DNA from: Yuukianura sp. NJ FZ-2021
Taxonomy: Eukaryota
Assembly: GCA_046563655.1 (NCBI GenBank)
Contig: CM102285.1
Span: 4,898,001 to 4,962,000 of the forward strand
Direction of reading: 5' to 3'
Length of the DNA stretch: 64,000 nt
Shown here: positions 101 to 38,667 of the stretch, one piece after another
Layout: each line of letters opens with the position of its first letter
How positions within the stretch are numbered: the first letter of the stretch is position 1
Program-made: the position numbers and the translations under genes
The notes under the pieces: generated by a model
Databases searched by the model: none
What the model was told of the DNA's origin: nothing
What the model saw: only the letters and a program-made list of their open reading frames with translations

Positions 101-2105
101 ATGCCTACTCTTTTTCTAGCTTTGATGTGTATTGCAACAATGATCACTGGAGCAAATGTACAGGAAACAGAAATGGAACTTAAACTTTCAAATGGAATTT
201 TGGAAAAAAAGTTAAACGAAGGGGGTACAAAGAAACGTTCCCTCTATTATTCGAAGCGAATTTGCCCGGAAATCAAGAATTCAACTTCCAAGAAAAACCC
301 GAAGACCCACTCCAGAAACACATGCAAGACGCCCTGCAATGCATGAACTCATGGATGAAGCCGCCGAACCTGCATTTCGAGGAAGTTTTTTAAAAGACTC
401 GGAAGTGTTCAAAACGACAACTGAATTTCATCGTGGGACTTCTACCACTGGTGTTGTGGAGTGATCGCTCAGTACGAACTACTACAAATTCAACAGGAGG
501 ATAGGAGACTGGAAGGATTGGCAGCAAACTTTAAGACTAACTTAGACCAGGATCATGCTGACATTGTCAGAGTGATGCAGATCGTCAGCAATTTTAGCAT
601 GAATGTGGAGTTGGAAATGGTGGAACATCAGCAGCGCATCAACACCAAATCAGCTCGGCTCGCCAAAGACAATGAAGCACTGGGAAGGACGTTGACTCAT
701 CACACCAAAAACTTCATTTCACTTATAGGGGCTCTTCAGAAGATCACCATCACCGGGACCAGGAGAAGCAGCATCATGGACTGCAGGGAGGGTTATATTC
801 CCAATCTACTAGTGACCCCAGAAGTTCTATAAGCAGAGGTGGAGATGTTGACAACGAAGGTCAAAGCTTTCCACATGGAACCAGTAATCAGAAGTTCCCT
901 AACGCACCTTTACTACGAGCGAAAAATCGCCAAATGTTCGTATTCAAAATCTAAACTGGTCGTCATAATCTGGGTACCATTGAAACCAATTGGGGGCTGA
1001 TACGAATTTTACGAGCTGACTCCAACGCCATACCTGTTTCATAGGAGCATTTGCCAACTGAACCTGGAAGTGACAAAGTTAGTCAAGAACAATGGAAAAT
1101 TAATTCTAATTCCAGAGAATCACAAAAGTGGTTGTGACCTACCGAAGGAACATTTATACCATGTGATCTGCCCCGACAAAGATGATTCAACCAAGCTGTG
1201 CAGCCGCCTTAATGGAGGAGTAAAATTACATAGAACTTAACAACAAGTGTTTACTTAAGTACGCAGATCACGACGGAGTTACAAGAATCACTGCGGTGGC
1301 GCGAAACAGATACAAGGTCATCAACACAAACGAATCGCTAAAAATCAAATGCGCTGATTCGGAAGAAACGTAGGAGAAAATGAGCGATGTAGGAGTACGG
1401 TGGACGCAACTACACTGTCATTTCGCAGTCTACGGAGAAGATGGCAGGAGACTGATACCCGCCCATTTCCCATGTACCACCATGGAATCGGTCGACCTAA
1501 TCCATCATGATATTCCGCGCATTTGGGCAAAGCCGATGGACCCAGCAGTCAAGGACCTAAGCAACGACAATCTTTCAGACATCCTGTACCAGAATTGCAA
1601 CCACCAAACTAACCACCTAAACTTGACTGCCACATCGCCACCGAAACCAGTGACAGTAGAATCCATGCCATACTTTGAAGCGGTGACTCATTACACCTTC
1701 CTGGGAAACGTCACTAACCTCCTAATTCTCGTATGGGAGGTATGGGTGACATGGACATTGATGAAACCTAACTGGATGACTCTACTAGCAGCCTGTCCGG
1801 GAGTAGGTCACTCAGACGACGCGCACTTAGCTGTCGAAATTGCGGACGATTTAATTCCGATGCTGATCTGAATCACGATGGTGCTCTGCTTCATTAGCTT
1901 ATTTGTCAAGTTGGGTAGCATGAGAAGGAACCGGACAGGAATTTGAGAGGCCCCACCGCCACCATCGGCCCCACCCGGTCGTTACCGACCAAGGGCACAA
2001 GCGCCTGCTCTAACTCAATTTCAACCTAACCTAAATCGGACGAGTCTTATTACAGAAGAAGACGATCTAAACCCAAGGAATGGAACTGCCCGAGACTTGA
2101 ATTGA
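101..2105 (+). pseudogene. Intronless viral envelope/class I fusion-type glycoprotein gene, disrupted
   Basis: Manual translation across frameshifts (~222, ~390, ~440 and later) and in-frame stops (830, 998, 1869, 1944) gives a signal peptide MPTLFLALMCIATMITGA, then KLSNGILEKKLNEG/GYKETFPLLFEANLP. A basic site SKR|QLNFIVG..FYHWCCGV follows, then a heptad-like helix, DCREGYIPNLLVTPEVL, YYERKIAKCS..LVVIIWVPL..YEFYELTPTPY, a Cys-rich region, two hydrophobic segments and a Pro-rich tail. The layout matches baculovirus F/errantivirus Env. Confidence 0.75.
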
Positions 2106-2265
2106 ACATGGGACATGGGAACTGCACTACTCAAAATTTAATTAATTTACACTTAAAGAATGAATGAGTCCAAACTTATAACTTAATACGTTAGAAAAAA
2201 AATTACAATGTTTCGTTCTAATTCTCGTTTTGTTAAGGAAAATAAACACCATCCAGATCTAATCA

Positions 2266-2523
2266 CTACTCTGCAATTACACCTCTCACATACACGCGGA
2301 ATCCAGGAAGGGGTGAAGGGAGAAAGCAGGCTCCTACAAAAGAACGGGCGGTAGCAGGTCCGGCATTGCCCCCTGGGGGTACTGACCTAGCGCTGCTACC
2401 GCCAGGTTCCTCCCGGGCACGGTCAACGGTAAGGATTGCCGCAAGGATCAAATTCTCATCATCATTCACGCATTTGTCCAGGATCAAAAAATCGTTAACC
2501 GGATCCTTCCATTCGATGAGATC
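2266..2523 (-). pseudogene. Possible terminal exon of an orphan gene converging on the env pseudogene
   Basis: Polypyrimidine tract plus AG acceptor (ttgttccttatag) precedes the open frame DLIEWKDPVNDFLILDKC...VIAE*. No recognisable domain and no intact upstream exon. Confidence 0.25.
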
Positions 2524-2751
2524 TATAAGGAACAAAACAGTTTTCTTTCTAGAATCGAAAGTTTTATTGTATAAAATGTGACAAATAATTTATTGTAAAA
2601 CTTATCTGATGGGATCTGCAAGGTGTAAAGTAGACCGAATTAGTATATATTAGTTAGTAGAATTTCAACATCGAACTAAGTAGGAATTTGGTGTAATTAA
2701 TACAACCCTGCCAATCATGATGACAATTATCACCCACGATTTTCTCCCTAC

Positions 2752-3050
2752 ATAAAATTTTTGAAATTCTGAACCAATTTTTTTCAAAAAATGGGAATTT
2801 GATGAAAACACCCTAAATTACGTTTTTCGAACGTTTTTTGATTTTTTCCGACAAATTTCAATTTTTCTGAATTTCTTGAACTGAAAATTGCTGTTTTTGG
2901 GCTAGATTTGAGCTTTTCTGACAAAGGAACTCAATTTTTACAGCGGTATAAAATTTTTGAAATTCTGAACCAATTTTTTTCAAAAAATTGGAAAATGATG
3001 AAAACACCCTAATTTACGATTTTCAAACGATTTTGAATTTTTTGCACAAA
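2752..3050. repeat. Imperfect direct duplication of ~100 bp, period ~196 bp
   Basis: ataaaatttttgaaattctgaaccaatttttttcaaaaaa..g..aa..tgatgaaaacaccctaa occurs at ~2752 and ~2948. Confidence 0.85.
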
Positions 3051-3164
3051 CGTATTGAACGTGAAAATTCCACGTCGCCAATTGTGCCACCCTTGGCCAT
3101 GTGCTAAAAGGCAAATCGACGAACAGATTTTATGCGCACGACAACTATAGGATTCTGACGCCAT

Positions 3165-4300
3165 ATTCGGTCGCACGTGAAATTTCACGTCGCGGATGGT
3201 GACATCCGCAAATTTTCGCGTCGCGCGAGGCGACGCGAATTTTCACAGAAAATGCAAATTTGATGCTCAGTTGCATTACGGCGACACATACAGCGATGGG
3301 ACGCGATTTCCGGTCGCGCGTGAAATTTCACGTCGCGAATACCGACATCCGCGAAATAGGTCAAAAACTAAAAACCGATGTCGGCAGGTGTTATGTGTGA
3401 CAACGGAATTGATCCTAAGCCGTTTCTAGTCGCACGCGAAATTTCACGTCGCGTACGCCGCGAGTGGTGAATTTTCGCGTCGCGCCTGGCGCCTCGAATT
3501 TGGTAGAAAATTGCCCATTTGTTACTCAGCTGTACTCACGGCGACACCAACAAGGATGCGACGCCATTTTCGGTCGCACGTGAAATTTACGTCGTTGTAC
3601 GTCGCGAACGGTGATATCAGCGTTTTTTACGAAAATGCGCATTTGATGCTAGACACGTTCAGAGCGTACCTGTGGTATTGTGAAGCCATGCTTCACTGAC
3701 GCGAATTTTTGCGTCGCGGATGGCTACGCGAATTTTCCCTCTCGCGACGCAAAATTTCGCGTACGACCGGAAATGGCGTCGCATTTCTGTTGGTGTCGCC
3801 TTCAGTACAGCTAACAAAAAGGCAATTTTCTGTAAAAATTCGCGTGTCGCCAGGCGCGACGCGAAAATTCACGACTCGCGGCGTACGCGACGTGAAATTT
3901 TGCGTGCGACTGGAAACGGCTTAGGATCAATTCCGTTGTCACGCATAACACCTGCCGACATCGGTTTTTAGCTTTTGACCTAGTTCGCAGATGTCGCCAT
4001 TCGCGACGTGAAATTTCACGCGCGACCGGAAATCGCGTCCCATCGCTGTGAGTGTCGCCGTAGTAGCGACTGAGCATCAAATTTGCATTTTCTGTGAAAA
4101 TTCACGTCGCCTCGCGCGACGCGAAAATTCGCGGATGTCGCCATCCGCGACGTGAAATTTCACGCGCGACGGGAAATCGCGTCCCATCGCTGTGGGTGTC
4201 GCCGTAGTAGCGACTGAGCATCAAATTTGCATTTTCTGTGAAAATTCGCGTCGCCTCGCGCGACGCGAAAATTCGCGACGTGAAGTTTCACGTGCGACAT
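3165..4300. repeat. CpG-rich inverted-repeat block built from ~120-145 bp units with palindromic cores
   Basis: Arms ~3167-3595 and ~3750-4165 are reverse complements (ORFs 3196+ and 3811- give near-identical peptides). An extra 144-bp tandem copy follows (4008 vs 4152). The core ACGTGAAATTTCACGT is a perfect palindrome at 3175-3190 and degenerate elsewhere. Confidence 0.9.
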
Positions 4301-4869
4301 GAAATAACGCCGGAGTAAAAATTTTCCAAAAAAAAAAAAATTTTTTTTTAATTTTTTTTTTTAATATTTTAATTTAAAAAAATATGGACGTTTTTGCCAA
4401 AATCGTTCTTGGGGACAATCGTCATTCTTGGTGATAATTGTCATTTGGTTTTGGACGGCATGCAGTCTGGGAGTATGGTGAGGGTAGGAGTTAACTTCCT
4501 TCTGTTACACTTCACTTTTGTTTCTTTTGTTTGTAAAGTTTTTGTAGACGCCTGCTCATCCATATAGTTAGTATAGTATTGGGTTTGGGGTAAGATGAGA
4601 TGATGAGTTATCCTGCGTGAGAGTTAGTCTGGTTTTGGTGTTAGAGGAGGAGGAAGAAGAGATGTACAGAGTATCAGATTAGTTATTAGTTGTATTTTTC
4701 AGTTGTTTCATATTACTTTCTTCAGTTTATTAAATATATTTTATATATTTAACCGCTGATGTGGTTTCAGTGTTTTGGTGAGTTTTGGTCTTTCGTTAGT
4801 TGTTGGATCTGCTGGTCAGCGATGAGGGTCTGAGGGCGTGGCTGATTATGTTTTTTTTTTTGTTTGCAG

Positions 4870-6180
4870 GACACCGTGTCCAGTGTGTTATGCTGGTGTC
4901 AAAACTATGGACGAACAAGTTGATGGGCGGAGAATCGACTTCTCCGCCCATGACGGGGCTTATGTTTTTGGCGAAAACCAGAACACTAGGTTAGTGCGTT
5001 TTGTAGAAATATTATTATCATAAAATATTTTTGAATTTTTTTAAAATAGTTATATGTTTTTTTTGTTTCAGTGCTTTTATCTGTGAGATTCGGACAGTGC
5101 TCAATGATATTCAAGGGAGGGTGGCATCTTTGCCAATGCAAAACGCAGCGTGAATTTTTTTTTCTGGTCGTACATGTTCTGAAATCTTTTGTAAACAAAG
5201 AATAATTTTTGTTTTGTTTTTTTGCTAAATTTTTAGAGCACGTAGAGCTGCCGAAGTAGAATGTGGTTCTGCCCAGAAGACTCGGGTCATCATTCAGCTC
5301 CAATTGGGGCTGGAGAAAAAAGAGAATGAACTTAAATCCCAAACACAGTCGTGGTAAGTTTCACAAAAAAAAAGAATAAGTAGGTTTTGTCGCAATTTGA
5401 TTTCGACACGTTCCACTCTAGTTTTTTTTTTGCTTTTTGTTTTTTGCAGGGAAAAAACTTTGGAATGCAATATGAACGGCATGAATCTGCGACTTTCAGC
5501 ATTCAAGAACCGAGTTGAACAGTTGAGTGCAAGGCTTTTGGAATCCGAAGCTCAGGTTCATGCAGAGAAGATTCGTTTGGCTCAAGGGCAGTACTTCAGC
5601 AGCAGCGAGAATGGACACTTTGCAACGTCACCAGTAACCAGAATCTTGTTCGTCGTACGGCCAACGAATATTCGACTTACAAGAACAAGTAGGTAATGCA
5701 CGGGATTCTGCATATTTTGCCGAAGCTAGGGCGTCAGCGGATGACCGCAGTCGGCAGGAAGCCGTCGATGAACTTGCTCGCTTGAGGTCGGAGTTTGCCA
5801 GCATGACTTTCAACAGGGAGTTTCAACCAGCAGCAAATGGACCGTCAGCTTCGGTGACGTCAGGTGTGGGAGATGGAGCGGGTGCGGCAGCGGAGGGAGC
5901 TGGAGTGAGTGGTTCGGGAACCGAAGCGGGTGCTTCGGGAACCGGAGCGGGTGCTTCGGGAACCAGAGCGGGTGCTTCGGGAGCCGGAGCGGGTGCTTCG
6001 GGAACCAGAGCGGGTGCTTCGGGAGCCGGAGCGGGTGCTTCGAGAACCAGAGCGGGTGCTTCGGGAGCCGGAGCGGGTGCTTCGAGAACCAGAGCGGGTG
6101 CTTCGGGAGCCGGAGCGTGTGCTTCTGGAATCGGCGCTAAATTGAATAAAAAAAGTTCATTTTTACCTTCCTCCAAGGAA
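4870..6180 (+). pseudogene. Multi-exon orphan gene with CxxC, coiled coil and Gly/Ala repeat; frameshifted
   Basis: GT-AG bounded exons ~4870-4989 (TPCPVCYAG..), ~5072-5149, ~5238-5353 and ~5450 onward (MNLRLSAFKNRVEQLSARLLESE..). A frameshift between ~5590 and ~5680 is needed to reach ..AVDELARLRSEF. No homologue recognised. Confidence 0.45.
5912..6132 (+). repeat. 21-bp minisatellite, ~10 copies (GCGGGTGCTTCGGGAACCAGA-type)
   Basis: Directly visible; translates as GAGASGT/VLREPER on + and PEAPAPA on -. Confidence 0.95.
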
Positions 6181-6797
6181 GGTCAACAAACTTGTAGTGT
6201 GTTTTTTTTTATTTTAGGCCTAAAAGGCCTGTTTTCACTACAACTTTCTGAGTTTATTTTGAATAGAGTTTCAAAGTAGTTGGTTAACGTTCGTTCGGTA
6301 ATTTCTTACCTCAGAAAGTGGTGTGGGGAGGTATCCCCAAAACCCCTCTAGCCTTCGTGGTTCCCCGTACTCCTCCGCTCCTGTACTCCTCCGCTTCTTC
6401 TGGCAGTTGCATCATCATCTTCTTCTTCCTCCTCCATCTTCTCTGGACGCAGTCGTCCACAACATCTCACAAGGAGAAGACCTCGTCACTCCAGTTCCCA
6501 GTAGCAGCCATCTTCTTTCTTCGTGTCTGGACACGCTACTGCCTCTATTGACCCGGACTTGACCTCTCCTGGACTTCCTGGACAGACCAGGAATACCTGG
6601 TTGATCCGACCAGGACCTCTCGACGCTTCCACTGCAAATTCATTGGCTATCCATACGTAAACGTATCTTTACTTTATTCAAATAAACTAATTGATCATTG
6701 TAGCCGTGTGTCCCACCGTCCCACCATTTATTGCTGTCGAGTGGCCTTTGAGCCAGTCGTCGGGAAAGTCATCCGACTTCCCCTCAGTGGGAAGAAA

Positions 6798-7647
6798 TGT
6801 AGGATAATTGAGTGTTTCATTTTTAGTGTTTTAGATTTCTGTTTGGTAGGAAGTGAGATATTTTGAGCGCGATTTTCTCTTTCTAGTTTCTTAAATTTAA
6901 AATAGGCTTTTGCGCCTGCGCTCAAGTTTTCTCACCTCGAGGTGTTAAGTTTTTAGTAATAAGATACAAGAAGTAACAAGATTAAGTACATGAAGTAAGA
7001 AGAAACTGTAAGAGTTGAATTAATCGGTTTTGATTAATTAAAGCAACTAAAAATCGTTCAGCCACAGTTTTGTAGTTTTGAGTCCGTCTATCAGTCACTC
7101 GTCATTAGTCAGTTTACTCCGGCCAGTTAATTTGTTGGAACTTTGAAAAGAGCAGGAAACGGTTAGTTTTCGTTCGACTTTTCTACAGAAGGAGCAAAAG
7201 TTTACTGCTGAACTGTTCGAGCAGGACTGGATGCCGACACACTTACTCTGGTCTCACTGCATTTGATGAACTGTTTTGAAAAAAATAAACAAAATTGAAA
7301 AGTCGTTCCCAAGTGACCCGGGTTGAAGGTCACAGAATTATTCCCATTGTGTCCACAATCGTAAAGTTAACTTTTGTATTAAATAAATGTTCGATGAGTG
7401 TTTGAAATGTTGAAACGTGATAAGAAGTGTTAACCTTCAAAGATTTCTAACGCTTTGGAGGTTTTGTTTTTGCCTCTGAATTGCTATGTGCAATAAATGT
7501 GAAAGCGATATGGGCAATAAATCGGGATCTCTGGATCCCTTAAGTTATGAACTTCACTCACTTATTCTTTGATCGTGATGCATGCGTAGACCATGACACT
7601 GGAATCAGTCTCATCTCAGATTCTAAGTAGTATAGGTTTACATTACA
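6798..7647 (+). mobile_element. Possible LTR-like segment
   Basis: Begins TGTAGG just after purine run GGGAAGAAA, contains AATAAA signals and ends ..TTACA. It is followed by TTTGGTGCAAAAACC, which weakly resembles a tRNA-Phe primer site. No second copy and no TSD. Confidence 0.3.
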
Positions 7648-8397
7648 TTTGGTGCAAAAACCACGATGCCAGGAAAAAAATGGCAGACTATGAAGTCTGA
7701 ACGCAAAACAAAAGAAAGAATGGGGGTGTTTCACGTAAGTTATTTTTTTTTTTTTGAAATATTTGTACTAAATAGTAATTATACATCTCGAAACTATATG
7801 ATTCAGGTGCCGGGTACCTCTCGTGACAATCCGACGGGAAGGGGCTGCCAAAAAAACCAAACAAAGGAAATAAGGTTTGATTATTTCCTATTATTTCTGA
7901 TTGGCGCAAGGTTTCATTTCCTGTTAGTACCTTACGCATACAGTTTAGGTTAGTCGTACGCGTGTCTTTGTGTAAAAGACTGTACGCCGGAGATTAAAAT
8001 ATGTGGAGGTGGATGCGTTTTACTTTATAAATTGAATTCCACATACCGTTCTAAAGATCATGAAAGTGCGCATGCGCCATTGACGTTCCAAGGCTTTTTT
8101 GTTACGCGCTTTCACTTTCTACGCATAAATTAGTTGCCAATATAAAACAATATATATTTACAACAATGTAACACTGAATCATAAAAAGGCCACAAAAAAT
8201 GAAAATTAAGTTAATTTGAATTTGATAATAAAATAGTTAATTTGAAGTCAAATTTTAAAATTAACTGTTTTGCTTTCCAAATGTGAAAATGACATGGTTC
8301 CTTGAACGCATCAATTAGGTTTAGCTGAGATTGTATTCCTTTTAGGTTCTAGAACAGGGTACAAATACCGGAAATAAATATATGTATCTATTTTCAG

Positions 8398-8769
8398 AAA
8401 TATACAAATCCGTTTCGCAAAATGAGATCGGACAAAAATGCCCAACGCTGGCAACGGTGGGCGCTCGAGCAATATGACCAGGTTATAATGTTTGGGACAT
8501 GTTCCTTTTGTTTTTTCAAGATTTTTCAAATTAACTAACCCAGGTGTGTTGTTAATTTTTAGCGGATTGATATGGGTGAAGACGAAAAAAATGTGGCTCC
8601 GAGGCGGATGCGCAGGAGAATGGAAAGGGATAGGAAGAGGGAGAAAAAAAATAGTAAAGAATTCAAGCGTATTTTACAAGAAAGGAAAACACACCCTAAA
8701 AAACAAAAGGGGCTTGAAGAGAAACATAAACAAACTAAGAAGAAATTCAAACCGCTTGAATTCGTGTAG
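8398..8769 (+). CDS. Small, very basic orphan protein (last two exons)
   Basis: Exon 8398-8481 (KYTNPFRKMRSDKNAQRWQRWALEQYDQ) splices in phase 0 to ~8563-8769 (RIDMGEDEKNVAPRRMRRRMERDRKREKK...FKPLEFV*). It converges on the helicase 3' end. Confidence 0.5.
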
Positions 8770-8920
8770 AAGCCAATCAATTTCAAATATCATTTTCAGC
8801 AATATCAAAATTTTGAAATCAACTCTAGGATTTATTCAATAATTTTTTTTTCATTTGTTATTGGCAAAAATTGACAACTAATGAAATACTACCAAGCACT
8901 TACACTTCATACATGCCTCA

Positions 8921-10564
8921 TTACATAGTCATTTGTTTACAAACACATGAATTGCTACAAACGTCGCAGCATGTGCAATAATTGCATTGGCATTCAGGGC
9001 CACATAATTTGGTGCAACGTACTCTTTTCTCTCCATCAGCCTTGTCGTAATTGAAAAAATGTTTTAATATAGCTGACCGGATACACTCTGAAGAATGAAA
9101 CTGAAATGTAGATTTTCTAAGGTAGTACGCTCGAGTTTTGAACGTGTAAATCACCGCAACTGCTGTTGCCGAATCCCTTCCTGCTCTTCCAATTTCCTGT
9201 TGAAAATTTTGAAAATTAGATATTATTAATTCAACTTAAAGATATATATATTATTATCATATTATTTACACCTCCCATCCCATTCACTTATTACCTGCCA
9301 TGATGCTAGAGCATCGAGCGGAAGTCCCCAAAGCAAAATTCTTCTTATGTCTGTAATATCTATTCCCATTCCAAAAGAAATTGTAGAAATAAGGATTTAG
9401 CATTCTGTTCCCCTAAACAAAGACATAATTATCTCCTTGGTTGCCGCGTCGATTGACCCACTGTACATCATGAAGCGGTAGTTGTTAAAGTCCCCTCTCG
9501 TCGTCACTCTATCAGTCTCACCCAAGTTTTCCCACAAGAAGTAGAAAATTGCGATTACTTCAACGTAAGAATCACAAAAAATTAACGTCTTTGGAACACG
9601 CCCATTATTAAGATCGTTTACTAGAAACCGCAATTTTTCGTAGTCTTTCTTTCCCTCAATGCATCTCAGATATATATTTGGTCTGAAACAAACCCAAATA
9701 GAAAAAAAATTGTCTTCTTTTACAAATGTTGGATTTACCTGTCCGGATTTCTTGTAATTATTGCCAACTTCTCATTAATCAAACTACACTTTTCTTTAAT
9801 GCATTTAAGCATTGTTGAAGTTGTTGTTGCTGTCAGGCATATCATTGGTGCCTTTGTGAAGCTGCGTAGCATTGACAGAGCAGAGTAAGCTTTGCGGAAT
9901 GGTGGGTTTTTGGCAGAGCTACATCCCCTGCAAAAGAATACTTCAGGTTATGTCCGTTTCTTTTCGAAAAACACTAATTAACCAGGTTTTTCTTACCATG
10001 TGCTTACAACATGGACCTCATCTACTACTAGTAGTTTAGGAGCAAACTTCTGAAAAATGGATGTCAAGGCGTTGCTCATTTGGAAAACTTCTGGTGCGAA
10101 GAGCAGAAAGGTTGGCACGGTGGCATTTTTAGCGTCTAACAATTAATTCATATTTAATTTTTCTTAATACTATCAATTTTGAAATACTAAATTTATATTC
10201 AACGTAAGATTTGAATAACGTTGGTGTTTTTCAAATTACCAGCTTCAAGTCTTTCCTCAGAGTACGTCGCAGTTGTATAAATAAACGCTTTGAATCCGTA
10301 GTATTCCAGACGATTACCCATGTCCTTCATCAACGACTCCAGTGGCAGGACTACAAACGTCACTGGATTGATAATTGCTGGCTTCATCATCAAAGGGGCA
10401 ATAATAAACGGAAGCGTTTTCCCAGAGGATGTTGGGGATATTAGCAAGACATCCTTCCCTTCATACAAGGCCCTTAGCGTTTCCAACTGAAAGTCTTTCA
10501 GGTGTTCTGGTAAATTGGAATATTTTTTTGACAAATCACCGTAGACGCTAATAATCTCTTCCAT
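8921..10564 (-). pseudogene. Minimal RecQ-family SF2 helicase, 5 exons, 439 codons, one in-frame TAA (AcademH-type architecture)
   Basis: Exons 10564-10240, 10135-9997, 9927-9739, 9682-9295 and 9196-8921 splice in frame. Motifs: LKDFQ, SPTSSGKT, VVLPLESLM, VVDEVH-VVSTWG..FRKAY, LTAT, NPDRPNI, LIFC, STISFGMGID, QEIGRAGRD, CIRSAILKHF..CTCCDVC. Premature TAA at 9397-9399. No winged-helix/HRDC or N-terminal extension. Confidence 0.93.
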
Positions 10565-10915
10565 TTTCTTTCAAACTTTAGCCAAGCTACACTAATTTTA
10601 CTTCAGGTAGGAATCATTTAAGTAAGTTATAAAACTTCGTTTTTTGGATGGTTGCCAAAACTTCTTCAATTCCAGTGTCCTACTTTTGTGATGACTAACC
10701 ACACTCTGTGATTTCACCTGCCTCGAAGCAGCTGCATAGACGTGACACATCGATCACACCACTTCAAAATCGGACGCCTGGTCGCTGATTGGGCGACGCA
10801 CCTCCGAAGAAGCTCTCAACAGCTTCCAACGTCGCTCTCCCTGGTAAGACGCCTGAGGTTTCAGTTTATTTCCAGACACCGACAGATACGCAGCATGTTA
10901 GAATCATCCAGAAAC

Positions 10916-13647
10916 ATGAAGACTTTACTCATCTTCTGGATTTTGCTATTCTGCGAAGCCACACGAAGCACAAAAATCAAAGTTGTTGACGGTACCTGGC
11001 TGAAACAGGTAATTGAATAGAAAATAAACTATGTATGTATGTTTTTCAGAGGGATCTCTAAGTGCATTAGGCACAGAGAGGATCACGGCGATGAGGCGTA
11101 CTATCGGGCCTATTTCGCACTCTCCATAACAGCAATTTAATTTCAGGGATTAACTCTCCCACCTCTAACCTTCGCTCTTTTTAATTGTCGGAGGAATTCC
11201 GTTAGTTCAGAGAGAGAAGTGTTTTTAAGATCCTCTTTGCTCAAGAGGTATACCCCAAATGCCTTTAGCCTTGGGTTCATGTTTGCCTCACACTCCATCA
11301 GTAGGTGATCACGTGTCTCCTCCCTGTATCCACAGTGTGGACATAGGGGCGAGTCTGCGATACCCATCCTGTGGAGGTGTTTGGCATTTTGTCCATGTCC
11401 TGTGATCAATTCTGTAAGAGATTTAAGGTCTTCTCTATTTAGTTTTAAGCAGTGTTTAGCATTTTGAGTACATGTTTTTGTGATGACTTTTTTGGAGTCT
11501 TCACATCTCTGTTGTGCTCGCCATCTTTTTTCATGACAGGTTCTGGAATAGTCATTGATTGCAGTTACTATTGTACGGTAAGGAATTGGTAATATCGGTT
11601 CTGGCCCAATAAATTTTGTGTAAGTAGCCGCCTTCGCTAAGCTGTCCACTATTTCATTGCCTACGTACCCCTTATGTGCTGGTATCCAGTTAACATTTAC
11701 CGGGCATATTGTGCTGATTTTGTTAAGTGTTATATGAGAATCATAGATGAGATTTGTACTCTCATCATTTTTTCCCATTAGGCTTTTAACAACTCCTTGG
11801 TTGTCGATATAGATTTCAACAAGTGTTATGTTCTTATATTCTGGTTTGTCTGTAGACAAGGTCTTTTCAACCCAGTCAGCAACCGAGAGTAAAGAGTACG
11901 TCTCCGCTTGAAAGACGCTTGTGCAGTGTCCAAGGGGATATATTTCACTTTGTAGTATTTTGTTACCATTGAGTACTACGTATGCAGCACCAGAAGAATT
12001 TATTTTAGATCCATCAGTAAACACTTGGAGGACCGAAGCGCTACGCTTTGGCTCCCCCTCCTCTTCCCAATGTTTCCGTTTCTTTATTAGTATATTGTAT
12101 TTAGGTGATATTTGATTTATGAATTTTGTTTCAATAGGTAGCGTGAGGAGTGGGAGATTATTTCTCCATTCCTCACATTGTTTTATGTGTGTGTTCCTTT
12201 TTAGAAGCCCCATGGATTTCCATGGTAGCCAGTCTTTATGCTCAATTAACCTTAACATTGTTTTAATGCACAATGTCATGATGTGATGGTCGATTGGGCG
12301 TATGTCTATAATGCACTCCATGCTCGCAGTTGGCGTGGATCGCATTGCCCCTGTTATGTTGATCAATGCTGCCCTTTGCGCCTTTTGCAACATGGTTAGT
12401 GTATTTTGTTTGGTTACTGCGGTCGCCCAGCAAACGCACGCATGCGTGATCCTCGGGCGGACAATAGCAGTATAAATCCAGCAACATATTTTAGGATTGA
12501 GTCCCCACGTTGTGGATATGGCTCGTTTACACTGATGCAGGGTGATTACTCCTGCAAGTGCTTTGGTTTGGTTTGGTTTTACAATGTTCAGTCCAGGTTA
12601 GTTTGGAATCAAGCCATACACCAAGGTGCTTGACTACCTTACTGTAAGATATGCTTATACCATTTAGTTGTAATATAGAGTTTGGTATTTTTCTACTGTT
12701 TGTGAATAGTACAGCTTCAATTTTATTGGGGTTTACCCCCAGTCGAATCGTTTTGCACCATTTGTCGACAGTGTTTAGACTTTGTTGCATTATGTTGGCA
12801 AGGGTCGACATATCCTTGCCACATTGTAGTAAGGAAACATCGTCCGCAAAGCCTTGCGTGTTAATCTGCGGAAATTTAGTTCTTAGAATATACAGTAGTT
12901 CATCCAGAACCATATTCCATAGGAGAGGTGAAAGAACGCCGCCTTGCGGGCATCCTTTCTGTACAGTTCTGTGTATTACTTTTCCATTCAGTTCACTGTA
13001 TACGGTTCTGTTTGTCAACATGGACGATATCCAGTTGATAACCGTCTTGTCAACTTCGAACCGATTCAGTGCCTCGAAAATAAACTAACAAAAGTATTAA
13101 ATAAATTTCTCAATTTTTAAAATAGGTTCCTAATCAATAAATATTAAAATTAAAATTAATTAAATTTTGATTTAACAATTTCAGGTTCATTCAGCAGCGT
13201 ACGAAGCTTCAATGCCTATGGTGTTTCGCATTCGACTTCCTAAGAATCTGATTGACTCAACAACTCTGTTCAACAAATGCGTTCAGGAGATGCTGGCGGT
13301 AAAGAATCAATCCATGAGATTGGAATGCCAAACACTGCTGATTTACAAGGATATCATGGAGAGAATTAGGTCCATCGAAAATGACATCAAGGTGAATACA
13401 CATGATTTAACTAATTCCTTGACAACAATTTGAACACATAATGAACATAGCTTAATTTTTATTGCAGCCTAAATCATCCACCTCCACAAAGAAGCATGAC
13501 AACCACATTCGCGAAAAAAGGCAAATACTAGCTGCCGCTGCTGTTGGAGCCGCTGCCCTTGGCGGAGCAGTCTTTGGGCCGGTCATTTCGAAGTATTTCA
13601 AAAACTTTTTCGGTGACTCCTCCGAGGTGAAAGATTACTTGAATAAG
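10916..13647 (+). pseudogene. Intron-containing envelope/fusion glycoprotein gene, N-terminal 160 codons only
   Basis: Exons 10916-11008, 13185-13391 and 13468-13647, all phase 0 with GT-AG. Signal peptide MKTLLIFWILLFCEATRS, then KIKVVDGTWLKQVHSAAYEASMPMVFRIRLP, then furin site REKR followed by QILAAAAVGAAALGGAVFGPVI. No further exon after the donor at 13648. Confidence 0.8.
11032..13075 (-). mobile_element. 5'-truncated non-LTR retrotransposon, LOA/R1-I group (RT, RNase H, CCHC)
   Basis: GCPQGGVLSPLLWN, GFADD, VFTDGSK, SVFQAE, WIPAHKGYVGNEIVDSLAK, CPHC..HLLMEC. (CATA)n 3' tail and 12-bp TSD GAAAATAAACTA at 11020-11031 and 13076-13087. Frame break near 12530-12560. Confidence 0.95.
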
Positions 13648-13703
13648 GTAATTTATTTGCAAATTATTCAAATGAATTCAAAACTTTGTACGAAATTTGT
13701 TCG

Positions 13704-14057
13704 TTAGAGCGCTAGCGTCACCATTGTCGCTTTGTCCTCACGTGCCACAGGCTGATCATCCGGATTCAGGCAGAAGTCCAATTTTCGTCGCACATGAGAA
13801 TTTGTGCCTGGAGGAGGCAGGAACTCTAAAAGTGCTTTGTGAATCGATTTCAGTCTATTCTTACATGAAGAACATAATGCGCGGTTATCTGCTCTATCCC
13901 GGACAGGCGTGAATTGTAGTTGTGAATTCATCCTGAATAACAAAGTTTTCAAAGCCTGCCCAACAGTCACATTGCAATCCCGCAATGTTGCGGAAAATCC
14001 AATAATATCTTGACTATTCTTGAAGGGTTTGTCGCAATTATCGCAGTGTCTGTTCAT
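13704..14057 (-). pseudogene. CxxC...CxxC (ZAD-like) zinc-domain ORF, probably a truncated N-terminus
   Basis: MNRHCDNCDKPF...RALCSSCKNRLKSIHKAL. The ORF ends abruptly next to the truncated env intron. Confidence 0.55.
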
Positions 14058-14392
14058 TTTCGTGCCGACTGTTCTTTCTGAAATTGGGTCCAACTGATAG
14101 TGTATCCACCTTAAAGCACCAGACTTCAAACCAGAACTAATTTCAACCACAGACTGGCAGGTTCAGACAGACTGCCAACCACAGCTTCATGAGTTGTTAG
14201 TGAGTCATTTTCTAATTTGGATACTAGCCAGAAGTGGCGGTTATCTCCCATCAGACACAGAAGGGGTTAAAGGCATCGTAAAACAGAAATACAACCCCCG
14301 CCTAACTATGGACAATGCAATGAGACAGTTAAAATGGTTTTTAATTTAATCAAAATTGATTTTGTTTTGGAGCAAAACTTGCTCCCTCCTAA

Positions 14393-14467
14393 GGGGCGAG
14401 TTGGCTCAGTGGTTAAGCCATCAATGCTTTTCCACTGGCCGGCCTGGGTTCGCACCCAGTCAGCGGG
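14393..14467 (+). other. tRNA-like / Pol III promoter segment (SINE head or pseudo-tRNA)
   Basis: A box TGGCTCAGTGG (~14402) and B-box-like GGTTCGCACCC within the stem CTGGG/CCCAG. No good acceptor stem. Confidence 0.5.
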
Positions 14468-15024
14468 AGAGGAAAAAGAAGTCGAGGCCGTGGGTCCTCC
14501 CTGTCCCGAAGCAGGGAGGCAAGTGCTGGACTTCTGCCTTTCCTGCGGCTGCTGTGTGGACACCCCAAGATAAAGGAGAGTGTCGGGGGCACCGCATCTG
14601 CAAGAACTGCCTGCTGTGGTCACAGTACCAAGCTGACCTTGAGTCAGAGGTCTGTGATCATCGCATGGAGCAGGTAAGAGCTTCGCAGATGTTGGTGTTT
14701 ACTGATTACTACTCCTTGAACCAGTCCATTAAGCAAAAAACACTCATTCAATCTGATTTGTTTATCGAAATACGGACGACCTCCGTAGGGTGATAACATT
14801 CAGATTATCATAATGTGTGTTTGCTCAGAAAGGACAAAAAATAACGCTGTTTCTAAAGGGGTTGATGTTGAAATATTCCATATAAGCGAATGCTCAGCGT
14901 GAGTCAGTCACCTAAATATAGGTGACTGCTCCCCCCAATAAACATATATATGCTCCCTCCTGTTCATCGAAATTATTTTTTTTGGAGAATGTTCTAACAT
15001 AACATAGCCATTACAAAAGATATA

Positions 15025-15490
15025 GGAAAAAGTTTACTTTCAGTGGGTAACTCCGATTTTCGTAATTTTTTTTTCACAAATACCCTTTGACCCCCTGACT
15101 ATGAAAATATAATTTTTTGGGCCCGCTTTCAAAAATTTCGAATTTTTAAAAAATTTTGAAAATGGGCAATTTCCCATAAGATCACATGTTAACTTTTCTT
15201 AAAAATAAATCCCTTTCTCGAAGCCTAAACAAACCTAACCTAAATGCTATAATATCAGTATTTTAGCCTTTAAAAAACCTAACCTAACGAAATAAAACCA
15301 ATAACCTATTTTGAGAAAAAAATTAACATGTGTCCTTATGGGGAAATTTCAATTTTCAAACTTTTATAAAAATTCGAATTTTTTGAGAGCGGGTCAAAAA
15401 AATTATATTTTCATAGTCAGGGGGTCAAAGGGTATTTGTGAAAAAAAAATCACGAAAATCGGAGTTACCCACTGAAAGTAAAACTTTACC
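15025..15490. mobile_element. MITE with ~180-bp TIRs
   Basis: TACTTTCAGTGGGTAACTCCGATTTTCGT.. is mirrored at the right end. GG..CC termini with flanks AAGATATA / AAGATTTA (8-bp TSD, 1 mismatch). AACCT repeats in the spacer. Confidence 0.85.
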
Positions 15491-16310
15491 AAGATTTACA
15501 TCTTGTACAAATTCAACTTTTTACTTAAAACCGAAAACGAGTACAAAAAACATGGATTTCCTTCGTTCAACAAAAATTGTGCATCGATGCACAATCGGTG
15601 GATCCACCGATTTCCCATCTCTTAACATTATACACACTCGCCTTATGGAGTGAAACCCAACCGTGTTTGAGGTGAGCGAAAGTAAACAAACAAACACGGT
15701 TGACATCCTAACAATGACACACTGGGGTTGACCTCTATTTATAGGTTCCCGTGAACCTATTACTGGGGTCACTTAGTGACTAACTAAACTGACAAAAATA
15801 GACTTGCACTCGTAGTCTAATCAAACATGACAGTGTGTTTGCACTTATGCAAACACAGAGAAAACAAAACGAAGACTCTGACATAACTTTACATGACTCT
15901 AATGTAAGTTGTGTGACTGAACTAAAATACAGTTTCTTGACCCGTGTCAATATGCTTACGTGTGGCCGCGTATGTAAAATTACGTAATAACCATGCGGTG
16001 TTCACATATATGGTGGACATGGTTACACGCGCGCAATTCCGATGTCATTTCAACCATTTTGAAAATTTGGAAACCAGGGTGATCTTTTATTTTGCACAGT
16101 ACAGACTACAAAGCGCAGAGAGAGCGTACTGTCGGCGTAAGTTACTGTCTTTAGATTATACCGTCGAGCAGGGATTTTTCACATGCGGGTAACCAGTGAT
16201 GATAACCCATATTAGGGTGCTGCTTCGACTCTTTTACAGAATTGTACTGGAGTAGTATGTGTACTCTTATAATTTAAGTTACAGATAGAAAGTGGCCGAA
16301 CTTTCAAATT

Positions 16311-19300
16311 TCAATGTTGACTTCTGAAATAACTGTTACTTGTAAACTGGGCAGGAGCCCGTCTGTGTTGCTGTTGCTGGTGTAAAACGGAGAGTAGTTG
16401 CGATGTATGGGAAAGGTCAATAGTTGTATACGGGTACCCGTCGACTCCGACGGCGGGACTTTGAAATTGATGAGTGGAAGAATGTGGTGGTGCCCTCTCC
16501 CATCCCTCCCCGCCCCCCATCAGGAAATGTGGTGCTGGTACGAGTGGTTGCTGGAATGTAGTTTGCAAATGGCGATCGCCAACGTGGGCTGGAATAGTCT
16601 CCTGTCTTTCGTAGACTGGGGATGTACTTTGTTCCGACGACAATGGATCCATTCGTTCCTCTTGAGACCTAGAGGACTCAATCGACGAAGAAGACGGCGT
16701 TCTGACCTTTTGAGTTTGTTGTCGTCGCTTCGGTGTAGGCTCAACGGTACGATTTTTGAATCTTTTTCCATAACGAGTCTTTATTCCCAAATGGATTTTG
16801 CTGTGCTGGTAGAGACTTTTTCTGGAAAAAAGACAAAAAATTGTTTAGCAGAGTTCAACATTAACAGGTTAAGGCATAAGGCTATGGTTTCTTATTTTCA
16901 TTTACAATTAATACAATGATAAATGCTATACAATTTTAGATTAGGTTGACCCATAGTGGAATATAAATTCAGAAAAACAAGTTGGGACAATAGCCAATTC
17001 ATAGAGTGTAGCGCTGGCGATGTGCTCTATTAGTACTTGTTGAAGCATTGTTCTTGTTTGCTGTTAACAGGAGGCGGTTTTTTTTTGTGTAATAACGGAG
17101 GCGGTTTTTAGGGTAGTTTACTCTTGAATTTGTGCAGATGACTGTTCCAATCTCTCACCGCTAAAGTACCGGAAACTGGCAAATTGATGGCAAATGCTTA
17201 CTCAAAATTAATGGTTCTTATTATTTTAAATTTGTTAATTTTTTTTTATGCACACGCTTAAGTGTGGGTCTTGGCATATCATTACGCTGGTAACGTAAAG
17301 CCCGCTTTATGTAGCGAAACTGTGTAAACAAGGACGCGGAGTTGAAACGCTATTCAAAAAATAAAATTGATACCTAATAATACCTAAATTCTTTTCTTTA
17401 AAACAATAGTGTTTCAAATCATTTTATAACAATCATTTAAGGCTTCTATCACCGGGGGTGTTTACCGTAATAAACATAGTGTTCATAGTAAGTACATAGT
17501 GTCGACATCCATGGTTAAGCTTCAACCAAAGTAAAAGCTCTAGTCATCTGCTTTAACCGCTACAACATGAAGCGGGATTTACTGCAACAGCGTACAACCA
17601 ATGCCATATAGCGGTCTTTAGAAGAAAATGAACAAACATAAGAAAAATAAAAATTAATTTTAAGCAAAGCACCTGCCCTCAATTTGCAATTTTCCGGTAC
17701 TTTAAGGCATTAGCCATTGGCACAGTTGTAAGCTAAGGAAGAGACAACTAAATTAGTAACAAGTAAACCAAACAGCAAGAAATATAATAATATAAATCAC
17801 ATTGTAATTTATGTAAATTCCAATTTTAAATCTGATCTGAATCAGAATGAATTTTAAATCGGAAACAATAAATTGAAATTGGTCTTACTGTGTCATAAAT
17901 GCTTTCCCACAAGATTCGCAGACGTAGCTCTTTACAGAGTTATGGCTTTCTTCGTGTGCTTTGAGCAGGCAACCCGATACAAATTTCTTGTGGCAAATTT
18001 GACATGTGTAATTCCTCGTATCTGAATGTGAAGCCCTTATGTGGTAATTTAACCCGGATTTAGCTTTATACCTGAAATCAACAAGAAGTTCAATATAAAC
18101 CTAGAATAAATTGCTGAAGTTAGCAGACTCACCCAACCCCACAAATTTCACAAACGTAATTCCTTGTCGTGTCATGGCTTCCCATATGTCGAGCTAACCC
18201 TTTGCTATCCAGCGCCAAGTATTGGCACTGTGTACACTGGAACTCTGTCGAACGTTGTGTGTGTACTGTGAGAATATGACGTTTTAGTTGTGATTGGACA
18301 TCAAATACCTGTCAATATATAATAAAAGCTTCCTGAATAAAATTACACGAGTATATAAACGTTCTACAAATTAGGTTTGTTGAAAACGTATATTAAATAT
18401 TCCCCAGCAAGCATTCACCTTGTTGCATTCTCCACATTTGTTTGCAGCTAGCATCGGCTCATGCTCCTGCCTCACGTGTGTTTTCAAGTCTGCAATAGAA
18501 AGATACCTTCCATCAACCCAACATCAGTTAAAATAGAATACAACATGGCGGTGCTCATTGTTCGTTCGTAACCAGGTCTATATCGAGAGGGTCGATTGCA
18601 CATTTCAGCGTGAAGGGAGGGCGAAACCCCATTTGAAACAAAAGTAGTGCTAATTTAGTGGGTTAAATAAGAAAAAGAAAACGTTTAAAACCTGAAAAAC
18701 GGTCTGCGCCAAAGTTTTAATATAAATTTCATTGTTCGCAGAATGCTGGTTTTCGCATTTTTCAAATGAACGTTTTTCGCATTTTTTCTTGTGTACATAT
18801 TATTAGGGTTTTCTCAAATCAACAAGTACAGCTTTTAATATTTAGCTCATAGATTTGTAATTTTGCTGTATATTTGATGTAAATTCATAAACAATGTGCA
18901 TATGAAAGGTACCTATTATAGCTTTCATTTCAAACGAATTAGAACATTCTATATTGGCATACCTTGTCGATTCGTAAATCCAGAATTGCATATTATGCAG
19001 GAGAACGGGTCCATAGCAATCCTCGCCCTATGTAGGTTCTCGTGAACATCCAAGTCTTCTTGTTTTGAACTTTCGTACATTTTTCCGCAGTAAGAACAGC
19101 TTAAGGTATCTCCAAATGGGTGTCGCAGCGCGATATGCTGAAAAGATAATCATACAAGGGTGTTAAATTAAAACTTTAATTTCTAGACATGAAAAAATTA
19201 TTTTTCCGAGTTCCGACATTCTGAGTTTCTTAGGATGGATAAAATTACTTTTTGATGAAAAATTGAAAGTCTTTAGTAGTACGTTTTGATCCGATTCATT

Positions 19301-22172: not shown

Positions 22173-22367
22173 TTAGAAATACTCGAAGATGAGCTCACCA
22201 GCCAAACTCCCTTTGCAGACTGATTCTTGATGGATCTTAAGCTGGTCAAGGTCACCTTTCATTTGGGCTGCACAGTAATTGCATTTCGCCCACTTCTCTG
22301 GATAATTCGACTTTCTAATGGGTTTGAAATGAAACCAAACAGGATCTTCCGTTTCGGTCCTCCCCAT
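22173..22367 (-). CDS. BED zinc-finger exon (hAT-type N-terminus)
   Basis: MGR..DPVWFHF...WAKCNYC..MKG..QLKIHQESVC, with a GTGAG donor near 22198. No transposase core is visible downstream. Confidence 0.7.
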   Translation of the reverse strand: MGRTETEDPVWFHFKPIRKSNYPEKWAKCNYCAAQMKGDLDQLKIHQESVCKGSLAGELIFEYF

Positions 22368-22926
22368 TTTTAGTACTAATACTGGTTCAAGTTTAACGAG
22401 ATCCGTTCACCAAGATAGTAGAAACAGGCGGTTAAGACGGTCTTCGTGACATGATGTCACTATGTAAATTCTTATACAAGGTTGAGGTTAGTATATTTTT
22501 CCTTCCACACGAATGCAAATTGACGTTCTGAAATACACAAATTGACAAATATACAAATGATAAGGCGCTGCTGAGGTTCAATTCCATGAAACCATCGGTT
22601 ACTTTTATATAATGAATATAACATTGTTATTATAAGGTTACACATACGTTATGTTAAAATGTAGATAATGCTACATCATGTAACATGTATGGCAGGATAG
22701 CATGTAACTTACATGCTATCCTGCTATATCATACGAAACAGCGATACGCCTCCCTGTATATATGTAACATGTGCAAATGCTGCTACCAAAAGTTGCTATC
22801 ATCAAATATCACTGGCTAATCTATTGGAGGGTATATGGGAAGGGCCGAAGGTATACGGTAGAATAAGCCGGACGAACTCTGCCTTACTCCTGGTCCTGCC
22901 TACTTTTCGTGGCACAGGCATAAGGC

Positions 22927-37500: not shown

Positions 37501-38667
37501 AGTTGCTTGCGAGAAGATTTTGAATTGTAATTATTACTGGAGCTGATTAGTCAATTTTGATTCTGATTCGGGTTACGGGTCATCGTAGTATAGGTTGGGT
37601 TGGGTGGTGAGCGACTGGTTAAATTGCTTCGGTTGAACACACTTTGCGTCATGGTGGGTGCATTGTTCTCAGATGGCGAGTTGGAGTCCATGTTGTTACG
37701 TCGGGAGGCCATGTTTTTCCGGGTAATGAGTGGAAGGTCTTGGTTAATGTTGAGTTGTGGTAGTGCAGACTTAATTTGCTTCTTGTTTTTCCATACTGTG
37801 TTCCTTGCCTCCAGCGACTTGAAGGTAACTTTGATGGGCTTATCTGGGTACTGAGGCGTGGGTCTTCCAAGGCGATGGGCTTCATCAATGAAGTGTTGAG
37901 TGTCAATTTGTAGTGCATGACCGAGCATATTTTGAAGTTCTGATTTGATTGACTGATTTGTTTCATTGTTTGCAAATTGAACACCGTGAATTATCAAGTT
38001 GGCTTTACTCAGTGCAATTTGTATCTTTTCCAATTCCGAATCTTGAGTATAGATACGAGTGGATAGATCTTTTTGATTGTTTTCAACGGCATGCACTCGG
38101 GAATTGAGGGAGGAAACTTCGGTCGAGAGTAATTGAATTTGCTGAGTAAGCTCGATGTGATTCGAAGTGACCTTATTACTAAGGTCACGAACGGCTGCAA
38201 GTACAGAGGCAATAGTGGCATTGTCGGACTCGGACATTTTCAGTGATTTGGATGAAGTGATGATGTCTTCCTTTGGTTTCCTTTTTTTCCCTCGTGTTTG
38301 GACACCTTCAGATGAGTTCATGATGTGTCATCAACGGTTGATATCTAGATAGATACCAAAACAGGTGCCAGTATCTTTTGGAACTTATACAAAGTTTGTC
38401 AGTAGCACCTTCAGGATTCACATTTACTTAAGTAAGAGGGAACTTACTTTGACTGAGTAGTCAGCTGATATTCCTGGTTTGATATTTGGCTGATTTCCTT
38501 GATATTCCTTGGCAGTAGTTGAACTTCCGTCGTACAGTGATTGCTCTTGGTAGTTTTGGTGTAATGATTGGTCAACAAGGAAGGTACGAACGTTGTCAAT
38601 TGATCACGTTTTTTGTCGATGTCTTTTGTGTCGATGTCTTGGCATATGGACCCTTTAGCATTGAGTT
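34525..38667 (-). mobile_element. Full-length CR1/L2-group LINE (ORF1 plus APE-RT ORF2 with three frameshifts)
   Basis: ORF1 38321-37551 (coiled coil, NLIIHGV, AHRLG..PIKVTF). ORF2 37550-34692: LNVCS, CISETH, LGDFN, ILDLVFT, SDHD, RPISL, QFGFR, LDLRKAFD, VPQGSVLGPLLF, YADD. 3' tail AATAAAT(AAAC)n. GTGGT is duplicated at 34520-34524 and 38668-38672. Confidence 0.96.

Follow-up and report, generated by a model that had tools for sequence, protein, structure and literature searches.

The window analysed here is the whole of a 64,000 nt stretch of contig CM102285.1 from Yuukianura sp. NJ FZ-2021 (assembly GCA_046563655.1, positions 4,898,001 to 4,962,000). The DNA is eukaryotic and AT-rich; it contains host genes, short spliceosomal introns and numerous repeats. 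Towards its left end, one copy of a dispersed repeat is interrupted by a segment containing four small genes (Table 1): a RecQ-type helicase gene; a divergently oriented gene, here 'env', whose product had been likened to viral fusion glycoproteins; and two open reading frames (ORFs), one encoding a basic protein and the other a protein with a CxxC...CxxC arrangement. A preliminary description of this DNA had proposed that these genes belong to one large element combining a DNA helicase with a membrane fusogen. We examined the structure of each gene, its relatives and the context in which those relatives are found, and the boundaries and copy number of the segment.

Table 1. Features of the segment and its surroundings (positions are those of the window)
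Feature	Position	Strand	Description
Interrupting segment	7244..15715		8,472 bp inside one dispersed-repeat copy; contains all four genes and nested repeats
Left 8-bp direct duplication, GACACACT	7236..7243		Edge of the interrupted dispersed repeat
Right 8-bp direct duplication, GACACACT	15716..15723		Only other occurrence in the 64-kb window
RecQ-core helicase gene	8921..10564	minus	5 exons, 438 codons, motifs I-VI, C-terminal Cys cluster; from splice model, Pfam, PDB and tree
In-frame TAA	9397-9399	minus	Helicase exon 4, between helicase C-domain motifs IV and V ('RGTEC*ILISTISFGMG')
Divergent intergenic region	10565..10915		351 bp, helicase ATG to env ATG, 44% GC
'env' gene	10916..13647	plus	Exons 10916-11008 (signal-like), 13185-13391 and 13468-13647; 160 aa
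Non-LTR retrotransposon fragment, 5'-truncated	11032..13075	minus	In env intron 1; Pfam RVT_1 1.2e-20, RNase_H 1.1e-7, zf-RVT 2.7e-4
Basic ORF	8422..8769	plus	Exons 8422-8481 and 8563-8769; 88-aa Lys/Arg/Glu-rich protein
CxxC...CxxC ORF	13707..14057	minus	117 aa, convergent with env
Repeated right-hand part	14224..15715		Depth 27-37x that of unique parts in run X1; SINE-looking and MITE-like stretches
SINE-looking, tRNA-like stretch	~14390-14700		Box-A/box-B-like motifs by eye; at least 27x depth
Palindromic MITE-like insert	arms 15020-15197 and 15318-15495		178-nt arms, 89% complementary

A stand-alone RecQ-core helicase gene

The helicase exons lie at 10564-10240, 10135-9997, 9927-9739, 9682-9295 and 9196-8921, reading from an ATG at 10564 to a stop codon at 8921-8923, and are separated by four introns of 104, 69, 56 and 98 nt, each bounded by GT and AG. 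When the exons were compared with Pfam, exon 1 matched DEAD (E = 7.3e-12) and the exon carrying motif V gave a weak Helicase_C match (0.0098), whilst at E<=1e-3 exon 1 had eight PDB matches, all of them RecQ or RECQ1. The helicase motifs are complete (SPTSSGKT, VVDEVH, LTAT, TISFGMGID and QEIGRAGRD). The protein terminates in CGPECQCNYCTCCDVCSNSCVC, and its Cys cluster, CQCNYCTCCDVCSNSCVC, fits the pattern CxCxxCxCC(S/D)xCxxxCxC. Across the helicase and env genes alike, the GC content of exons (39-48%) is higher than that of introns (13-33%), which argues against these being chance ORFs.

A phmmer search with the exon-4 piece, in which the in-frame stop was replaced by X, returned 473 proteins at E<=1e-3, 25 of them at E<=1e-10, the best of which was 51% identical over 126 aa (121.8 bits). 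The top matches are not long cellular RecQs, instead being proteins of 126-453 aa with a CxCxxCxCCSxCxxxCxC tail; the complete ones are around 410-460 aa in length. Family members score from 121.8 down to about 60 bits with this query, as against 25.5 bits for WRN, the best PDB match, which aligned over residues 101-162 only (62 residues). The window helicase is colinear across all five exons with residues 4-448 of a 453-aa relative, P0005, and the columns of the Cys cluster are nearly invariant in the family alignment, A1. Pfam found DEAD, Helicase_C and noise alone in 18 family proteins, with RQC and HRDC in none of them.

In a quick maximum likelihood tree of 47 rows, from which P0002 (too short) and the locus L072 (no single long frame) were left out, a branch with 99% support in the Shimodaira-Hasegawa-like approximate likelihood ratio test (SH-aLRT) parts the Cys-cluster proteins from 12 bacterial and giant-virus RecQs. 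The window helicase is neighbour to P0009, within a clade (28 rows, 96% support) that also takes in two of the loci described below, L001 and L002. P0009 retains an intron, in frame, at the WQ|E position where the window helicase also has one; hence at least one of the helicase introns is common to a relative.

The protein resembles cellular RecQs (E. coli RecQ and human RECQ1, WRN and BLM) in having a DEAD plus Helicase_C core, the GKT, DEVH, TAT and QEIGRAGRD motifs, and, beyond the core, a Cys-rich region of zinc type. It differs from them in score, with 25-31 bits compared to 60-122 for family members, in having neither RQC nor HRDC, and in its length of around 440 aa. These comparisons support assigning the predicted protein to a stand-alone 'RecQ core plus Cys cluster' type, not to the cellular RecQs; both its much stronger match to the family than to WRN and its nesting within the family in the tree bear out the earlier suggestion of a stand-alone core. 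The window gene therewith joins a family of stand-alone RecQ cores that is large and has been little described.

The preliminary description had reported a minimal RecQ helicase on the minus strand starting at 10564. That gene is confirmed, now with five exons and its Cys cluster, but the TAA in exon 4 had been missed. The closest relatives, P0002 and P0009, both carry Lys at this position, and therefore one base change suffices to produce the TAA. Inspection of the surrounding sequence by eye found no GT..AG pair able to splice it out. The ORF of the helicase is interrupted here; it otherwise has no lesion.

Contigs from four public runs (X1-X4) belonging to two studies were used for sequence depth and for joints; at about 99% identity, X4, the run under a second organism label, contributes no evolutionary depth. 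In run X1, a single 2,954-nt contig covers 8106-11059 with no difference from the window and at the depth of single-copy sequence (131.6), and every contig listed for the source sample's three runs has the TAA.

The helicase might alternatively be a domesticated, functional host gene, the TAA representing a polymorphism, a strain-specific loss or a site of read-through; all four genes would then be lineage-specific host genes, and the 8-bp duplication around the segment would mark an unrelated old segmental insertion. The four canonical introns, one of them common to relatives of about 50% identity, fit such an origin, as do the single-copy depth, the intact motifs with their one lesion, and the presence nearby of host genes encoding RPC5, a Rieske subunit and a C2H2 zinc-finger protein. 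We nevertheless regard it as unlikely given the occurrence of the TAA throughout the source sample's contigs, the result of a word-indexed search among longer proteins, in which exon 1 gave 241 candidates and no annotated protein containing it, and the finding that no RNA run was among the public runs matching 8400-11030.

Linkage to DUF6589 in related loci

We scanned for loci of the family with a 20-sequence helicase alignment; from 580 confirmed metagenome stretches we kept 80, and from 264 viral ones another 80, giving 160 RecQ-bearing loci. These were mostly generic RecQs on metagenome and viral contigs, with 24-32% identity, and the Cys cluster was found in just four (L001, L002, L018 and L072). 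A fifth candidate, L115, matched the regular expression for the cluster through a low-complexity Cys run and was rejected.

Three of the four family contigs (L002, L018 and L072, all from metagenomes) have a DUF6589 gene in convergent, tail-to-tail orientation with the helicase; the fourth, L001, extends just ~730 bp past the helicase. Pfam identified the domain in L018 (E = 1.3e-22) and twice in L002 (3.2e-9 and 1.5e-7), and that of L072 was detected by tblastn with the L018 protein (1.6e-38). On L002, a metagenome contig, a frame with a PHD-like finger is situated between the DUF6589 pieces. The DUF6589 ORF of L018 had no match in a PDB search, and searches of papers for DUF6589 (PF20231) yielded one passing mention and one false match.

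AcademH DNA transposons were reportedly described by Kojima in 2020 (Mobile DNA 11:15), and a CCDxC cluster is, we presume, a mark of them. AcademH is reported (PMC10045372, PMC10799480) to carry, as an accessory, a gene for a stand-alone superfamily-2 helicase; the family of the window helicase adjoins DUF6589 elsewhere. RecQ helicases are also present in other DNA transposons, KolobokH and Kolobok-1_CCri, in one case on the complementary strand, as stated in PMC9587614. The same paper places KolobokH in fungi only, its transposase being fused to a helicase that lies downstream; by comparison, neither a Kolobok transposase nor TTAA-type ends were seen in the window.

We infer that the DUF6589 protein serves an Academ-like DNA transposon as its DDE-type transposase, and the repeated tail-to-tail pairing suggests a transposase role for this domain of unknown function. 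Given the conserved helicase-DUF6589 unit and the three papers (PMC10045372, PMC10799480, PMC9587614), a transposon origin of the Cys-cluster helicase family is likely.

No such partner is evident at the locus itself, the best tblastn match to DUF6589 in the window having an E-value of 0.17. A Pfam scan of 70 window ORFs (41 + 14 + 15, from the first 28 kb and beyond) detected no transposase, capsid or polymerase domain, the only reverse transcriptase and RNase H being those of the non-LTR (long terminal repeat) retrotransposon fragment nested in env intron 1. The preliminary description had seen no gag/pol, capsid, transposase or terminal inverted repeats (TIRs), which is correct for the last three but overlooked this reverse transcriptase and RNase H. 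A gene similar to env, to the basic ORF or to the CxxC ORF was found in none of the 160 RecQ-bearing loci, including the four of the family; hence the recurrent linkage of helicase and env that a shared element had been expected to display was not observed among them.

The env gene

The env and helicase genes diverge, and the spacing of roughly 350 bp given for them earlier agrees with the distance measured. All the junctions of env are GT-AG and in phase 0, and its exons have a GC content of 42-48%, against 13-28% in three putative introns. Intron 1 is long because of the nested non-LTR element. This is 2,044 bp in length, has a depth 5-17x that of unique parts and is flanked by a 12-bp duplication, GAAAATAAACTA, at 11020-11031 and 13076-13087; without the element and one copy of the duplication, the intron is 120 bp. 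A 710-nt contig over exons 2 and 3 (13031-13740) is of single-copy depth (137).

In the predicted product, a signal-like MKTLLIFWILLFCEA... is followed by a putative ectodomain of about 100 residues that includes two Cys and one NxS site; next come the dibasic REKR and, near the C-terminus, QILAAAAVGAAALGGAVFGPVI. The last of these regions contains a 21-residue, Ala/Gly-rich hydrophobic segment of membrane-span length, and the sole hydrophobic window after the signal peptide comprises residues 118-142. Exon 3 encodes 20 residues beyond the hydrophobic segment; a possible fourth exon at 13708-13755 would add 15, making 35, and read-through would add 19.

A class-I fusion subunit requires heptad repeats and a membrane anchor after its fusion peptide. 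Neither a heptad-repeat region nor a C-terminal membrane anchor was found after REKR, and the 20-35 residues left after the hydrophobic segment provide no room for them. Searched separately, the exons matched no Pfam family at E<=10, Baculo_F included. A word-indexed search among longer proteins gave three candidates for exon 2 and 2,364 for exon 3, none of them significant, and scans of viral contigs with exons 2 and 3 revealed no relatives.

The env model might alternatively be no gene at all, if open frames and splice-like sites merely happen to line up: frames of 83-85 aa from stop to stop are frequent in this region, where 109 frames of at least 40 aa occur within 9.5 kb, and the gene has neither a detected homologue nor a matching RNA run. 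This is quite improbable, however, when the exon and intron GC contrast matches that of the verified helicase gene, every junction is GT-AG and in phase 0, and intron 1 is of a normal 120 bp once the nested non-LTR element is discounted. Hence env is a real-looking gene.

The likeness of its product to baculovirus F and errantivirus (gypsy) Env proteins is at the level of pattern: after a signal peptide come a short N-terminal region containing two Cys, RxKR and a hydrophobic stretch. It is unlike them in having no Baculo_F match (E<=10), heptad repeats or anchor, and in that the hydrophobic stretch is of a length to span the membrane. On the predicted sequence, the product, of ~160-175 aa, is most likely either a small membrane protein of type I or a secreted precursor that furin processes. 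The earlier claim of a spliced fusion-type glycoprotein gene hence holds as regards the three-exon structure, signal peptide, REKR and hydrophobic stretch, but not as regards fusion, in the face of the missing homologue, heptad repeats and anchor; the fusogen label reflects a low-information pattern and is not supported.

The basic and CxxC ORFs

The small basic gene and CxxC-CxxC ORF that had been reported to adjoin the helicase and env are both present, as an 88-aa, two-exon frame and a 117-aa frame respectively. The basic ORF lies tail-to-tail with the helicase, 151 bp away, and has a GT-AG intron of 27.5% GC between exons of 39-57% GC. It matched no Pfam family at E<=0.01 and noise only at E<=10; a DNA-packaging role for its product is pure conjecture.

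Likewise, the CxxC ORF had no Pfam family at E<=0.01, weak zinc-ribbon noise at E<=10 and no PDB match at E<=10, and a single-sequence AlphaFold2 (AF2) model was unusable (mean predicted local distance difference test score, pLDDT, 55). An apparent resemblance to the insect ZAD (zf-AD) domain was not borne out: there was no zf-AD match at E<=10 nor any PDB match. A contig of run X2 over 13711-14262 has 10 differences from the window and 1.7x depth.

Boundaries, repeats and copy number of the segment

The limits of the segment are defined by contigs of all four runs that join 7233-7235 straight to 15715-15729. Examples include a 327-nt contig of X2 with 163 letters on its shorter side, and a 456-nt contig of X4 with 183, of which 8 fit either side. 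Flanking bins at 7000-7300 and 15729-16000 have about 7-9x the depth of unique parts, and hence the flanks, 7000-7243 and 15716-15900, are two halves of a dispersed repeat; no inverted ends of this repeat were found between 6700-7235 and 15724-16400. Extending the 8-bp duplication to 9 or 10 bp introduces one or two mismatches respectively.

The segment itself has no TIRs, the left end aligned with the reverse-complemented right end scoring 18, whilst shuffled controls scored up to 28. Neither LTRs nor poly-A were found on it, and inspection by eye of 7236-7250 and 15700-15723 revealed no ends of the Helitron (TC...CTRR at an A|T site) or hAT-like (YARNG) kinds. Either the whole segment was inserted at once, producing the 8-bp duplication, or nested insertions assembled it in place. 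A TIR-less insert of 8.5 kb bracketed by 8 bp represents a structural event of unexplained mechanism, and it is the sole support for the genes having formed one block. Weaker joints (7332->15558, 7622->14956, 7764->15131 and 9600->9733), with sides of 26-41 letters or undetermined letters between, may reflect layers of nested repeats, at which the first two hint, or derivatives arising by deletion.

Within the 64-kb window, none of the four genes was found a second time. By contrast with the single-copy genes, nested repeats reach a depth of 1000-4800. At 7274-8135, depth is around 1.6-2x that of the helicase in X1-X4 and contigs differ from the window at 8 places; therefore a second copy or haplotype has this part in common with the window and diverges near 8106-8135. 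The right-hand part of the segment is repetitive. The stretch at 14390-14700 is probably a short interspersed nuclear element (SINE), judging by its motifs, whilst the insert resembling a miniature inverted-repeat transposable element (MITE) is absent from other copies of the surrounding repeat, in which contigs skip 15004-15493 (joint 15003->15494).

To our knowledge, an envelope-like gene has not been described for any helicase-bearing cut-and-paste superfamily. The proposal that helicase and fusogen were parts of one element, in its full form a large, now non-autonomous AcademH-derived element carrying the helicase, a secreted, furin-cleaved protein with a fusion peptide and a basic DNA-binding protein, would make the segment an enveloped transposon or endogenous virus. 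It draws on the tight packing of the four genes, with spacers of 151-351 bp, inside one 8,472-bp insert in a dispersed repeat with a perfect 8-bp duplication, on the linkage of the helicase family elsewhere to a probable transposase, and on the REKR-plus-hydrophobic pattern in env.

Against this, the ends are not inverted repeats by the comparison with shuffles, transposase, capsid and polymerase were not found in the window scans, the unique parts are single copy, and no RecQ-bearing locus among the 160 has an env-, basic- or CxxC-like gene. In addition, env is without a homologue in Pfam, the longer-protein search and the viral contigs, and its short C-terminal remainder includes neither heptad repeats nor an anchor. 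AcademH duplications are, moreover, reported as 9-10 bp (PMC10045372), the perfect one here being 8 bp, and the locus, with its unique parts in single copy and with neither transposase nor TIRs, departs from AcademH in those respects. We consequently do not uphold the single helicase-fusogen element, and judge an enveloped origin of the segment highly improbable; that the 8.47-kb segment is a single Academ-like unit that lost its transposase and carries the helicase with a furin-cleaved, fusion-peptide-bearing membrane protein is extremely improbable.

A precedent for a DNA transposon carrying a membrane-fusion gene exists in nematode Mavericks with a captured fusogen (bioRxiv 10.1101/2022.07.12.499685). 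Mavericks have polymerase, integrase and capsid genes and long TIRs, none of which is present in the window. Were an enveloped element present here, DNA transposons would have a second way out of the cell in addition to that of Mavericks, but the evidence fails to support this.

Origin of the locus

It is fairly probable that the interval represents a solitary transposon-type helicase relic among orphan genes, and not one enveloped element. Elsewhere, the helicase family lies tail-to-tail with DUF6589, the putative transposase of an Academ-like DNA transposon, and in an intact element of this type, transposition would involve unwinding or remodelling of DNA by the helicase. At the present locus the helicase appears without its partner gene, terminal repeats or further copies, and with its frame cut by one TAA; it is on account of these features that we consider it a relic. 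It may have been left behind by an old insertion, or have been domesticated once and only just lost: a solitary, intron-bearing, nearly intact copy could reflect either domestication or very recent loss.

The 8.47-kb segment would have entered a copy of the dispersed repeat with an 8-bp duplication, the non-LTR, SINE-like and MITE-like elements being added later. The env, basic and CxxC ORFs would be orphan genes, forming with the helicase a cluster of four small, short-intron genes.

Several points weigh against this interpretation. The loci linked to DUF6589 are distant relatives, with 28-30% identity to helicase exon 4, and the helicase tree was built without the cellular eukaryotic RecQ1, BLM, WRN, RecQ4 and RecQ5. 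With all its motifs and a single nonsense codon, the otherwise intact helicase could belong to the host's functional genes, its stop being polymorphic or misread, and the runs that agree with the TAA derive from a sample that may be the assembly's own source. Bins at 9107-10009 have 1.3-1.7x depth and one X3 contig skips 9601-9732, which may indicate a partial paralogue of the helicase. As for the other genes, the combination of REKR with an Ala/Gly-rich hydrophobic stretch resembles a class-I cleavage site and fusion peptide, and from the 8-bp duplication it follows that the genes came in, or became enclosed, as a group.

Other features of the window

The host genes in the 64-kb window include those for a C2H2 zinc-finger protein (19.6-21.2 kb), RPC5 (25.7-27.2 kb), the Rieske subunit (29 kb) and a CP2 factor (59.5 kb). 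Neither ARAGORN nor Rfam made a call in 6000-17000 or the rest of the window. Decayed multi-frame ORFs occupy positions 1-1900 (e.g. 425-829, 1001-1237 and 1374-1868); an impression that these are the C-terminal part of a retroelement envelope was unsupported by Pfam, PDB or viral contigs, the last scanned with ORF 425-829.

On the minus strand at 22176-22406, 6.5 kb past the segment, there is a weak BED zinc-finger match (E = 0.0012), under the Pfam cut-off. The minus strand at 34692-38327 is occupied by a non-LTR retrotransposon that is nearly complete, having an endonuclease (Exo_endo_phos) and a reverse transcriptase as well as a frame like ORF1; it sits amid strong GC skew and tandem repeats of ~200 bp (31-34 kb). 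At 5833-6168, at least 11 tandem 21-nt units encode Ala/Gly/Ser-rich frames on both strands.

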